Below, in pieces: positions 33,001-39,000 of a DNA stretch of 64,000 nt. Within the stretch, counting starts at the first letter, position 1. Each line of letters begins with the position of its first letter. The DNA is from Escherichia coli (GTDB lineage: Bacteria > Pseudomonadota > Gammaproteobacteria > Enterobacterales > Enterobacteriaceae). The DNA is taken from the NCBI RefSeq assembly GCF_045037415.1, contig NZ_CP173438.1. One strand, given 5' to 3'. The position numbers were made by a program.

Positions 33001-36000
33001 TATTGATTTTGGACAGCTTTCAAAAAGCTTCCTTCAAGCAGGAGGCGTATCCAAACCAATGAATTTAGATATTGAATTGGTTAATTGTGATATCACTTCA
33101 TTTAAGGGGGGGGAGGAGTCTCGGCAGCAAAAAAAGGGACTGTGAAGCTGGCTTTTAGTGGTCCAAGGGTTTCTGGTCATAATGAGGAGTTAGATACCAG
33201 CGGGGGGACAGGTACTGCGATTGTAGTTCAGGCTGCAGGTAAAAACGTTTCTTTCGATGGCACAGAAGGTGATGCTAATACCCTGAAAGATGGTGATAAT
33301 GTGCTGCATTATACTGCGATTGTTAAGAAGTCGTCAGCCAATAATGCCCAAGTCACTGAGGGTGCTTTTTCTGCAGTCGCAACCGGTGATGCTGCCAACT
33401 TACTGATTTAGTGTATGATGGTGTTTTTGAGGTGCTCCAGTGGCTTCTGTTTCTATCAGCTGTCCCTCCTGTTCAGCTACTGACGGGGTGGTGCGTAACG
33501 GCAAAAGCACCGCCGGACATCAGCGCTATCTCTGCTCTCACTGCCGTAAAACATGGCAACTGCAGTTCACTTACACCGCTTCTCAACCCGGTACGCACCA
33601 GAAAATCATTGATATGGCCATGAATGGCGTTGGATGCCGGGCAACAGCCCGCATTATGGGCGTTGGCCTCAACACGATTTTACGTCACTTAAAAAACTCA
33701 GGCCGCAGTCGGTAACCTCGCGCATACAGCCGGGCAGTGACGTCATCGTCTGCGCGGAAATGGGCGAACAGTGGGGCTATGTCGGGGCTAAATCGCGCCA
33801 GCGCTGGCTGTTTTACGCGTATGACAGGCTCCGGAAGACGGTTGTTGCGCACGTATTCGGTGAACGCACGATGGCGACGCTGGGGCGTCTTATGAGCCTG
33901 CTGTCACCCTTTGACGTGGTGATATGGATGACGGATGGCTGGCCGCTGTATGAATCCCGCCTGAAGGGAAAGCTGCACGTAATCAGCAAGCGATATACGC
34001 AGCGAATTGAGCGGCATAACCTGAATCTGAGGCAGCACCTGGCACGGCTGGGACGGAAGTCGCTGTCGTTCTCAAAATCGGTGGAGCTGCATGACAAAGT
34101 CATCGGGCATTATCTGAACATAAAACACTATCAATAAGTTGGAGTCATTACCTACAACGTTTATCGACCTCACACGAACAACGATGGTTTACCGCCTTGC
34201 TTACATGAAGAAAAGTGGAAACAGGTTATTCCGGTGTCCTGATTTTGTGAACCACTACAATAATCCTTTTTCACAGACTTGTCAGCAGCCAGCATTTATG
34301 TTCTTTTACCTGCGGGAATTTATCCGTCTGCCTGTCGGGACTACTCTGTCATACAGAAATCAGGTAGGAATAAATTGTAGTGGAAAGTCGATGTTTACCG
34401 GATGACTGATGCGCGCTTGTACACAGACAGTGTGTTTCAGTAATATGGAGAATAATGAAATGAATAACACAGACACATTAGAAAAAATAATCAGACACCA
34501 AAAAAACAAAGACCCCGCATATCCCTTTCGGGAACATTTGTTGATGCAGCTCTGTATTCGCACAAATAAAAGAATGCAGGATAATATATCTGAATTTCTG
34601 GGGGTGTATGGAATAAATCACTCAGCATATATGGTTCTCACCACATTATTCGCAGCGGAGAACCATTGTCTGTCACCTTCAGAGATAAGCCAGAAACTTC
34701 AGTTTACCAGAACTAATATTACCCGCATTACAGATTTTTTAGAAAAAGCCGGATATGTAAAAAGGACGGATAGCAGGGAGGATCGCCGTGCTAAAAAAAT
34801 CAGTCTGACATCTGAAGGTATGTTTTTTATTCAGAGGCTCACTCTTGCACAAAGCATGTATCTGAAAGAAATCTGGGATTATCTGACCCATGATGAACAG
34901 GAACTGTTTGAAGTCATTAATAAAAAGTTACTGGCACATTTTTCTGATGCCAGCTCATAAAGTGCGAAATATCTGAGGATGCTGGATAGCTTCAGGCAAG
35001 AGAATAATGATTCTTGCAGATGTGTTTTTCCGGATACAAAAACAAAAGTAAAAAATTGCAGCGCCAGGCCACCTTTCAAAGCAGGGAGGCCTGTACCGCG
35101 TCGAAAATTTCAGCCAGTTAATGTAATTGTCTGAACCAGGCACTTCGCCCGGGCAGGAGAAGGAGCGTGGTTGCGGTCATCCTGTATACTGAAGTCGTTA
35201 TGAAGGAATAATACAAATAATTGCCCGTTTTCTCTGTACGATAGAGGCAGGTGTGTATGATTGCATTACTATGTTTTTGTGATATAAAAAACTAAATGGT
35301 GAGATATGCATTTTAAAATATAACAAAAATCACCATGAAATAAGAATAATTATCCACGGAGAACATAAACTGCAGACTGTTACAATGCATGCTGTTCATC
35401 TTGACAATGTCGGTAATGACTCCAACTTATTGATAGTGTTTTATGTTCAGATAATGCCCGATGACTTTGTCATGCAGCTCCACCGATTTTGAGAACGACA
35501 GCGACTTCCGTCCCAGCCGTGCCAGGTGCTGCCTCAGATTCAGGTTATGCCGCTCAATTCGCTGCGTATATCGCTTGCTGATTACGTGCAGCTTTCCCTT
35601 CAGGCGGGATTCATACAGCGGCCAGCCATCCGTCATCCATATCACCACGTCAAAGGGTGACAGCAGGCTCATAAGACGCCCCAGCGTCGCCATCGTGCGT
35701 TCACCGAATACGTGCGCAACAACCGTCTTCCGGAGCCTGTCATACGCGTAAAACAGCCAGCGCTGGCGCGATTTAGCCCCGACATAGCCCCACTGTTCGC
35801 CCATTTCCGCGCAGACGATGACGTCACTGCCCGGCTGTATGCGCGAGGTTACCGACTGCGGCCTGAGTTTTTTAAGTGACGTAAAATCGTGTTGAGGCCA
35901 ACGCCCATAATGCGGGCTGTTGCCCGGCATCCAACGCCATTCATGGCCATATCAATGATTTTCTGGTGCGTACCGGGTTGAGAAGCGGTGTAAGTGAACT

Positions 36001-39000
36001 GCAGTTGCCATGTTTTACGGCAGTGAGAGCAGAGATAGCGCTGATGTCCGGCGGTGCTTTTGCCGTTACGCACCACCCCGTCAGTAGCTGAACAGGAGGG
36101 ACAGCTGATAGAAACAGAAGCCACTGGAGCACCTCAAAAACACCATCATACACTAAATCAGTAAGTTGGCAGCATCACCCAATCTGCTGACAGACGAAGA
36201 TAATGAACCCGTTATGGTTTTTAACGGAGAGAGGAATGTACTGGCAGACAGTCTGAAACCACAGCCTCTGATTCTTCCGGTCAAGGGAAAATAAGCGTAA
36301 TGTTCATCACCAGATTATGTACGATGAGTTTTCCACTGTTTATAGCAATTATCTTGCTAATAACCAGACAGGAGTAACCAGACCAACCGAAAACACCGGG
36401 AAGGTGATTACCCGCTGGCAGAGGAAATCCGGTTTTTTTTGATGTCAGCCATAACGTGTTTGACAATAAAGCATCATGAAAGGGTGTTAATGAGTCCATG
36501 GGATAATTCATAAAAATAATTTACTGTGTTATCCTTTTCAAAAGAAATATTCAGAAGATAACCCCTGGCTGACAACCAGGGGAAGGGGGCATTAACAGTG
36601 TTATTATTGGTGAATAAATTATTACTTGTGTGCAGGATACACTAATGCAATATCTACTGATACTGTATGCCAGTATGTTTCATGCCTGCCGCTGAAAACG
36701 GCAATATCCAGGGCCAGATATATTCACCATTCATATTTCTGCATTTCTGTACAATTTTCTCAGAAAGCGTCTCATCAATTCTTTCACGCAACTTCTCCTG
36801 CTGTCTTAAAATACTTTCGCATATTTCGAAATCATCTTCCTGCATCAGCATTTCGGCGCATTTAATGATTTCTGCCCGTTCATGCAGCACAGAGGAATGA
36901 TTATAGAGCCAGTTTACAAACAGCAATGCTTCCGGATATTGCCCCCATAACGGGTGGTATGTGGCATAATAATCTTCGGCAGTATCCGGACCGCCTGAAA
37001 AGTTATGCCATACAGCAAGTGGAAATGGATGCAGATTTCCGCACAGTATTTCTGCGATGTAAGTATTTGCCGCAAAGCCGCGACGAAATGCAGTTGCAGC
37101 TTTTACCAGTTCCCCATTAAGAAAATGCAGAAGGCCGAGTTCATACCAGTAAGGTGAAAATTCATCTGCATGTTCCTGCAGTATATGGCGTGCCTGTTCA
37201 TGAGCGCCAGTGCGTAACAGTTCCGGTCCCAGTAGCCAGCGTGCACCATGATTATCTTCGGGATTGTAATCCAGTATTTTTTCAATGAGCATGATGGCAT
37301 CCTGATGACGCTGTAAATGTGCATTTGCCAGGATTGCCGCATAGAGGGCACGAAGAAAAGGTCGGTTGTCAGGATGTATCCAGATGATTCTGCCACTGAA
37401 ACCTTCAGGGATAAGACGATTGCCAATTGCCAGCCCTTTAAGGGCAGCATTCAGCGCCTTACGCGGGGCATTCTGCTCCAGAAATACGTATGCCAAGTGA
37501 GCGTGTACATCAATAAAGTCATTCTCCTGTCGGGCAAGGCGCCTGAGTTTGTTGATGTAACTTGTTTCGCTGATTTCATCCGCATCGTATGCATCAATCA
37601 GTTCTTCAAACTCATCCAGCAACGAGCCAAACCAGGTTTCCGGAAATATGAAACAGCCCTGGTTATCGTTCACTTCAAAGCGTAATTTGCCAGTCATATT
37701 CTGAACCTGTAAAAAAGGATGGACCATAACCTGCAGGCTATAAAAATTGTGATGCCTGGCATCGGTGTCCTTTTATTGTCCGGGATTAACGTTGCCCATG
37801 ATAATACAGTGAATTCTGTTCTGTGGTAAGACGTTGAGTTATTGAATGAGAACCTCAGCCTGGCTGATGGTTCCGCCGGCATAAAAAAGAAATTGATTGA
37901 GGCGGGTGCTCTTCCCCTTAAGAGGAAGAGCATGTGTGTAAATGGCGTTCAGTCACCTTTTCAGTGGATTGTTAACTTTTGCATATTCAAACGGACTGAT
38001 ACACTCCTCCCTGTTTGCATCCAGAAAATCTGCCCACCATTGCAGCATAAGCCGACGTTCTTCCAGATGTTCTGCTTTATGAATATACGCGGCACGTACT
38101 CCGTTGCGCTCCTGATGACTCATCTGACGTTCAACCGCATCTCTTGACCATAAGCCGGATTCAATCAATGCACTGCACGCCATCGCCCGGAATCCATGGC
38201 CACAGACTTCCTTGGTTGTGTCATACCCCATCACTCTGAGGGCCTTATTTACGGTATTTTCACTGATTGGTTTACGTGGGTCGTGTGCTCCCGTAAAGAT
38301 CAGACCATTTTCACCTGCCCATGTCTGAAGTTCTGCCAGTATGGCTACAGCCTGTTGGCTGAGTGGCACAAGATGTGGTGTTCGCATCTTGGAGCCCCGG
38401 TATGAAAATTTTACGCCTGGCAGAGGTTCGCGTTCGGCTGGAATAGTCCACATGGCATTGTCAATATCAATTTCAGACCAGCGGGCATATCTGAGTTCAC
38501 TGGAACGAATAAAAACCAGTAAATTCAGCATAACTGCCAGTCGGGTGACAGGCTGGCCTTTATAACCGTCAATACGCGACAGAAGTTCAGGCAGGCGTGA
38601 AAGATCCAGAGCAGGGCGATGCTGGCGTTTTACCGTGGTCAATGCACCAGCCATATCCAGAGCCGGGTTATATCTGATGATGCCAGACTGTACGGCATAA
38701 CGCATTACAGCAGATATTCTTTGCTGCAGACGACTGGCGATTTCATAAATTTGTTTAACTTCTGCAGCACGAACAGGGATAAGCAGATCCGGGGTACTGA
38801 GTGTTGTGATATCCCGGTTGCCGATAAAGGGGAAAACGTGAGTCTCGAGGCTTTTGAGTACTTTATCGCTGTGTGATTGTGCCCATTGTTTATTACTGGC
38901 ATGCCAGCGTCGTGCAATATGTTCAAAAGAGAGCTGTAAATCAGGGACTACTTTTTTAGCTCTTTTCTGTTCGCAAGGGTCAACCCCCTCCGAAATCAGT

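Follow-up and report, generated by a model that had tools for sequence, protein, structure and literature searches.

How did a P-fimbrial operon come to be reduced to a few remnants, and why do the two inverted copies of the insertion sequence IS1 that frame one of them, the regulator gene papX, lack the short target-site duplications typical of this element? The question arises in a 64,000-nucleotide stretch of Escherichia coli DNA (assembly GCF_045037415.1, contig NZ_CP173438.1), called the window below. It is the genomic island at pheV (GI-pheV) of E. coli sequence type 131 (ST131), and it matches the O25b:H4-ST131 strains EC958 and JJ1886 at 100%. The region of interest is the integrase end of the island, where the order is papI, papB, papA, IS1, papX, IS1, two conserved genes, a P4-type integrase gene and tRNA-Phe. 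The most probable answer, to which we assign a probability of roughly 0.8, is a history of insertion, followed by deletions anchored at the ends of the IS1 copies, followed by flipping of the papX segment between two identical copies in inverted orientation. The features at the centre of this history are given here in their order along the window.

32843..33384, plus strand: remnant of papA without its last six codons (alignment with UTI89, AF57 and SW070919; translations).
33385..34152, plus strand: IS1 copy 1, IS1A-like, with its left terminal inverted repeat (IRL) on the papA side (termini searches, repeat finder, transposase model match).
34153..34260, plus strand: last ~107 bp of an IS3-family pseudogene, the right endpoint of the first deletion (partial IS3-family transposase matches; colinear with strain 582 from 34153).
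34409..34960, plus strand: papX, intact, encoding a MarR-family regulator of 183 amino acids (open reading frame list; RefSeq WP_001774069.1; MarR/MprA-family matches).
34961..35411, plus strand: native DNA that follows papX, with the original IS1 target GACAATGTC (35403-35411) at its end (colinear with strain 582 up to 35411; target duplicated in MS 196-1).
35412..36179, minus strand: IS1 copy 2, with its right terminal inverted repeat (IRR) on the papX side and its IRL on the outer side (termini searches, repeat finder).
36180..36294, plus strand: last ~115 bp of a phosphoethanolamine-transferase gene, the right endpoint of the second deletion (colinear with strain 582 from its position 26251, inside the coding sequence 25385-26365).

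Both IS1 copies are 768 bp long and are exact reverse complements of each other, separated by a 1259-bp spacer (34153-35411), in agreement with the inverted pair 1.26 kb apart that the first-pass annotation of this DNA had described. The arms drawn by the repeat finder (33385-34156 and 35408-36179) are longer by 4 bp each, an extension produced by a chance match at three of four positions. The termini, beginning with GGTGATGCTGCC and GGTAATGACTCC, occur exactly twice each in the window, where none would be expected by chance. The 23-mers of IRL and IRR agree at 18 of 23 positions and are found in the window only at the four expected ends. InsA matches positions 1-81 of the profile NF033558 and InsB positions 75-199, and an A6C frameshift motif (AAAAAAC) lies at 33691, where a programmed frameshift is annotated by RefSeq. 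Length, terminal repeats and the combination of insA and insB' with an A6C -1 frameshift are thus those of IS1. An 8-9 bp target-site duplication is missing from the window, but since copy 2 has GACAATGTC on both sides in strain MS 196-1, the duplication was lost secondarily and membership in the IS1 family is not in doubt. The spacer holds 107 bp of the IS3-family remnant, about 150 bp of native DNA upstream of papX, papX itself and 451 bp downstream of it; papX is the only gene enclosed, with some 250 bp ahead of it, as had been noted before.

The missing duplications can be examined through the four 9-bp flanks, which from left to right are A (GTCGCAACC) and B (TACAACGTT) at copy 1 and C (GACAATGTC) and D (CAATCTGCT) at copy 2. 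No pairing among them gives a match: A and B agree at 1 of 9 positions, C and D at 3, A and D at 2, A and the reverse complement of C at 3, and D and the reverse complement of B at 3. Re-inspection at every duplication length from 7 to 14 bp found none either, so that both earlier statements hold, namely that neither copy has matching flanks and that the flanks do not pair up under a simple inversion. Simple insertion, composite transposition, inversion between two simple insertions and duplicative inversion were each considered, and none of them fits the flanks of the window. Duplications were detected where they do exist, with 8 bp at an unrelated IS1 in papH and a perfect 9 bp at the C site of MS 196-1. 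The papH element, found in a dog isolate (locus L011, 12351-13118), is a simple insertion with the 8-bp duplication CAGATAGC in an otherwise complete, UTI89-like pap operon. It fits the published remark that the papA region has been struck repeatedly by insertions (PMC8281228).

An explanation for the unmatched flanks can be obtained from strain 582, which is free of IS1 at this locus. In that strain papG is followed by an IS3-family pseudogene, papX, some 11 kb of other DNA, and then by the two conserved genes and the integrase gene that the window also has; in relatives, this pseudogene sits between papG and papX. The window runs colinear with strain 582, and the breakpoints can be placed to the base, at 34153, 35411 and 36180. 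This colinearity means that the papX segment of the window has never been inverted or imported, and that each IS1 stands where ancestral DNA is gone. At copy 1 the gap begins 20 bp before the papA stop codon and takes in papH to papG and all but 107 bp of the IS3-family pseudogene. Its size is estimated at ~8.6 kb, of which ~5.2 kb comes from annotated gene positions in UTI89 and 3,403 bp was measured in AF57. At copy 2 the gap, measured along strain 582, amounts to 10,991 bp and reaches into the phosphoethanolamine-transferase gene. The DNA lost there is non-pap DNA, and this second deletion of ~11 kb goes beyond what the first-pass annotation had seen. A complete IS1 terminus is kept at all four joints, and the colinear ancestral DNA is absent precisely from the intact IS end onward.

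Adjacent deletions mediated by IS1 are classical E. coli genetics, and the locus resembles them in its complete IS1 ends, its constant flank on one side, its lost duplication and its missing colinear DNA. It differs from experimental adjacent deletions in that the events are natural ones, read from the comparison of genomes. That copy 1 abuts a truncated papA was correctly observed before, with the refinement that only the last six codons are lost (FNLSYQ is exchanged for GDAANLLI and a stop codon). The further proposal, that IS1-mediated adjacent deletion or recombination lies behind the loss of the pap structural genes, finds support in the colinearity with strain 582, where the ancestral DNA missing at each IS1 is present, and in the two strains MS 196-1 and AF57.

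Both of these strains retain intermediate states. A synthetic joint representing a simple insertion at C, composed of the IS1 IRL end, GACAATGTC and the ancestral downstream DNA, is present as one 100%-identical piece in five genomes. In MS 196-1, copy 2 is flanked by GACAATGTC on both sides as a perfect 9-bp duplication, and the 11 kb are still in place. Copy 2 therefore began as an ordinary insertion and then lost the DNA beside its IRL end. For copy 1, the blood isolate AF57 has a joint between papA and IS1 identical to that of the window, and its right joint lies just upstream of papE. This strain is without the region from the papA 3' end through papK and keeps papE, papF, papG and the whole IS3-family pseudogene. 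The right endpoint of copy 1 lies elsewhere again in other relatives, at the papG 3' end in SW070919 and MS 196-1 and 810 bp into the IS3-family remnant in GPEC874 and MS6198. At copy 2 the C joint is common to all relatives examined, and the outer joint is found at C (the simple insertion), at D or 41 bp beyond D. One joint is thus constant and the other variable among relatives, and a constant IS end with variable far endpoints and complete termini is the classical pattern of IS1-anchored adjacent deletion.

The last part of the proposed history concerns the orientation of the papX segment, which the first-pass annotation had called potentially invertible. IS1-free constructs were built from 1 kb of left flank, the spacer and 1 kb of right flank, with the spacer in native or flipped orientation, and were searched against 5,426 complete E. 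coli genomes; the same was done for the structure of the GPEC874 type, a sister to that of ST131. The potential turns out to be realised in nature. The ST131-type structure is native in 555 genomes and flipped in 38, and the GPEC874-type structure is native in 88 and flipped in 173. In the flipped genomes SaT040, SK1144, MB1341, MS15046 and MS6198 the flanks read A, IS1, reverse complement of C through reverse complement of B, IS1, D, with nothing gained or lost. Reciprocal recombination within the IS1 copies would be expected to exchange the inner flanks in just this way. For SaT040, one of the flipped genomes, and for ZH063, the assemblies used PacBio libraries size-selected above 7 kb, whose fragments are long enough to cover the 2.8-kb structure from end to end.

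Flipped and native forms can also be found side by side within a background. EC958 (native) and MB1341 (flipped) have the same alleles of yqgA, speC and nupG; CM189243 (native) and SK1144 (flipped) have a second allele set of these genes in common; and JNEC-KY173 (native) and MS15046 (flipped) share a tandem-island context. The presence of both orientations within the same backgrounds, and also in the GPEC874-type class, points to several independent flips of the papX segment. The record of CM189243 (NZ_CM189243.1, locus L015), which is ST131-type native, is labelled Nissle 1917, and its yqgA, speC and nupG alleles are those of the ST131 strain SK1144. The record measures 5.06 Mb and the Nissle chromosome about 5.4 Mb, so the label may be wrong.

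Homologous recombination between inverted IS copies is a textbook route to the inversion of enterobacterial chromosome segments. The papX segment resembles the known cases in its long identical inverted repeats, the exact exchange of inner flanks and the existence of both isomers in nature. Unlike them, it is very short, at 1.26 kb, contains only one gene, for a regulator, and has the same 768 bp on both sides whichever way it lies. It is also distinct from programmed invertase switches such as fimS or Hin/Gin, as its repeats are whole IS1 elements, and neither the open reading frame list nor the EC958 annotation contains an invertase gene in or beside the segment. An attempt to map the crossovers in flipped genomes with IS1 variants (positions 4 and 767 in GPEC874) failed, as the change at 767 is private to GPEC874.

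Together, these observations suggest the following course of events. Insertion of copy 2 downstream of papX would have created the 9-bp duplication GACAATGTC, after which ~11 kb next to the IRL end of this copy would have been lost, into the phosphoethanolamine-transferase gene, and the second copy of GACAATGTC removed with it. Copy 1 would have landed 20 bp before the papA stop codon, and the DNA to the right of its IRR end would have been lost in steps. The step seen in AF57 would have removed the papA 3' end through papK, and a further 3.4 kb (papE, papF, papG and most of the IS3-family remnant) would have gone in ST131, bringing the total to ~8.6 kb. Finally, homologous recombination between the identical inverted copies, which we infer to depend on RecA, would flip the 1.26-kb papX segment, an event that has probably been repeated in nature. 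The loss of the fimbria would then have been stepwise, with its steps still visible in other genomes.

Several points weigh against this account. In none of the 5,426 genomes did the search reveal a simple IS1 insertion at the papA site, the nearest match being the unrelated papH element of the dog isolate; the original state of copy 1 is therefore deduced rather than seen. In SW070919 the left joint differs, lying at the papH start, and copy 2 has the outer joint that is displaced by 41 bp past D. MS 196-1 combines a left IS1 with a right IS1 that remains a simple insertion. These two strains imply either that the order of events differs between lineages or that modules of the island have been reshuffled by recombination. 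The orientation calls come from public assemblies, with long-read provenance checked in SaT040 and ZH063 only. Lastly, an adjacent deletion and a homologous deletion between two IS1 copies yield identical products, with the IS1 end intact and the duplication destroyed.

The last point opens the way to the strongest of the competing explanations, in which RecA-dependent recombination joined two IS1 copies in direct orientation and deleted the DNA between them, a second IS1 having inserted at each far endpoint. In its favour, IS1 is abundant in these genomes (a median of ~10-20 matching places per genome), and exchange between IS1 elements is evident from mosaic copies such as the left elements of AF57 (positions 486-538) and MS6198 (positions 40-157). 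However, no genome was found with the required partner insertion at D, nor one with a partner at the papA site; at D, all matches with at least 80% coverage were in several pieces, 95-97% identical and at other positions. The corresponding search at B gave 267 matches and was confounded by GPEC874-type genomes among them, in which the IS3-family remnant is near an IS1; the eight matches listed were all gapped and in two pieces. In addition, AF57 and ST131 share the papA joint and differ at their right ends, as is classically seen when deletions are anchored at one IS end. We consider recombination of direct copies unlikely, and the deletions most likely arose by intramolecular IS1 transposition, that is, by adjacent deletion, as far as genome comparison can indicate. 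What leads us to favour the transposase route is solely the absence of partner insertions.

The relationship between the two copies within a genome is informative for a second explanation. In every lineage examined, both IS1 copies share lineage-specific private variants. For example, the two copies of SW070919 do not differ from each other, and a shared internal deletion of 92 bp leaves each at 676 bp (locus L006, 11890-12565 and 15260-15935); the copies of MS 196-1, compared by length, have the same reduced size of 676 bp (locus L010, 10255-10930 and 13625-14300). Shared private variants of this kind fit a frequent and ongoing exchange between the copies. Exchange with other IS1 elements is suggested by the two mosaics. 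The left IS1 of AF57 (locus L005, 9830-10597) has 11 substitutions clustered at 486-538, the left IS1 of MS6198 (locus L009, 8236-9003) has 15 at 40-157, and both patches look like conversion tracts from other IS1 variants. The outer joints of SW070919 and MS 196-1 may mean that ~11 kb was deleted twice independently, with endpoints 41 bp apart, or that gene conversion spread a defective copy.

The sharing of variants could also mean that one copy was made from the other, by intramolecular replicative transposition with inversion, and that later deletions erased the reverse-complement duplication. The copies are indeed identical in ST131, share the 92-bp deletion in SW070919 and are always inverted. 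Such an event predicts that A equals the reverse complement of C or that B equals the reverse complement of D, and neither equality is present; the segment is not inverted relative to the IS1-free ancestor; and at least as many steps are needed as for an independent insertion and deletion. Gene conversion between copies that recombine often explains the shared variants as well. A duplicative origin is thus improbable, and independent insertion of the two copies, each followed by deletion, is preferred.

Two complete inverted IS1 copies around a single passenger gene also have the architecture of a composite transposon of the Tn1681 type, in which inverted IS1 arms enclose a short passenger. 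Insertion of IS1-papX-IS1 as a unit is, however, extremely improbable. Unlike Tn1681, the structure has no outer 9-bp duplication (A and D agree at 2 of 9 bases) and gives no sign of independent movement. Its passenger lies in native context, colinear with its native neighbours, and its two outer joints differ in their history. At the loci that were inspected, the unit sits in GI-pheV or within the island block of one plasmid; the plasmid collection contains it once, and there it merely terminates ~32 kb of this island. It is scarcely credible that collapse of a 768-bp repeat during assembly produced the arrangement or its flipped form. Graphs built from short reads do leave a segment unoriented when the inverted repeats around it exceed the insert size, but the native form recurs in 555 independent complete genomes, the flipped form in 38 and 173, and the PacBio libraries of SaT040 and ZH063 span the structure.

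With insertion, IS1-anchored deletion and later flipping as the favoured history, the consequences for papX can be considered. In either orientation the IRR end of an IS1, transcribed toward papX, lies directly upstream of the gene and the other IS1 lies downstream. The sequence that differs between orientations lies beyond these 768 bp and is either the papI-papB-papA region or the integrase-side genes, which are likewise transcribed toward the cassette. A promoter and terminator scan of the cassette found no convincing promoter upstream of papX and only the known promoter-like site of the IS1 IRL. Given the same 768 bp on each side of papX in both orientations and no convincing promoter in the cassette, the flip looks close to neutral, which would fit the drifting ratios of native and flipped forms. 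A more far-reaching idea, which we regard as very doubtful, is that the papX cassette is a recurrent orientation polymorphism (38 of 593 ST131-type and 173 of 261 sister structures flipped) in which orientation may set whether read-through reaches the gene of the motility repressor PapX from the papI-papB promoter region, which is phase-variable, or from the genes on the integrase side. If true, this could produce heritable motility differences between sublineages of a pandemic clone.

For typing, the practical implications are more direct. Descriptions of the ST131 GI-pheV report that EC958 and JJ1886 carry pap remnants only (PMC3203889, PMC11537424, PMC8281228), and ST131 H30 strains have been typed as positive for F10 papA (PMC5369007). 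The joints described here explain at the level of base pairs why ST131 types positive for F10 papA, papI and papX without having P fimbriae, and a positive papA or papX result in virulence typing should not be taken to mean that fimbriae are present. The orientation of papX can serve as a simple structural marker that varies within the clone, with the caution that short-read assemblies cannot orient the segment. The degraded pap locus of ST131 has already been published and the mechanisms are classical. The details belong to a familiar type of event at a locus known to be degraded, and the current understanding of IS1 or of pap function is unchanged. In the searchable literature, we found no description of the exact joints, the second deletion, the intermediate genomes, the concerted evolution of the copies or the orientation polymorphism.

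The outer IS1 recurs as a joint on the record of a conjugative plasmid, where it borders a 32-kb block with sat and the aerobactin genes. The plasmid pE2022-9 (NZ_OR345929.1; loci L016/L017) is 60.9 kb in size, is typed as conjugative (MOBP, MPF_I) and carries blaCTX-M-14 together with ~32 kb of the island (window 1619-36179), including sat, iutA, iucABCD, papI, the truncated papA, IS1, papX and IS1. The block stops precisely at the IRL of IS1 copy 2, its outer end, and is followed there by CGAATAATAAC in place of D; the other end of the block lies in diverged shared sequence. It could be a real capture or a chimeric assembly.

Beyond the IS1 pair, the pap genes of the window contain further lesions. 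In papA, a run of eight G at 33106-33113, compared with nine in AF57, causes a frameshift, a second inactivating change besides the truncation by IS1. The remaining features of the region are as follows.

31684..31917, minus strand: papI, intact (EC958 annotation mapped on the window; open reading frame list).
32322..32635, plus strand: papB pseudogene (a run of eight T at 32417-32424, compared with nine in UTI89).
36281..39491, minus strand: conserved end of the island, with a hypothetical protein, a tetratricopeptide repeat (TPR) protein, the P4-type integrase and tRNA-Phe (pheV) (EC958 annotation).

Aligned with papB of UTI89 by BLASTN, the papB pseudogene shows 311 identities in 315 positions and one gap, which falls in the T run. 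The shorter run shifts the frame, and the RefSeq annotation of papB covers only the last 165 bp, a C-terminal piece of 54 amino acids, and the same short annotation is found in AF57 and SW070919. Upstream of papI, at 29907-31120, lies an IS3-family transposase pseudogene with an internal stop codon and an annotated AL1L frameshifting pseudoknot; the element is intact in other GI-pheV variants (loci L002 and L005).

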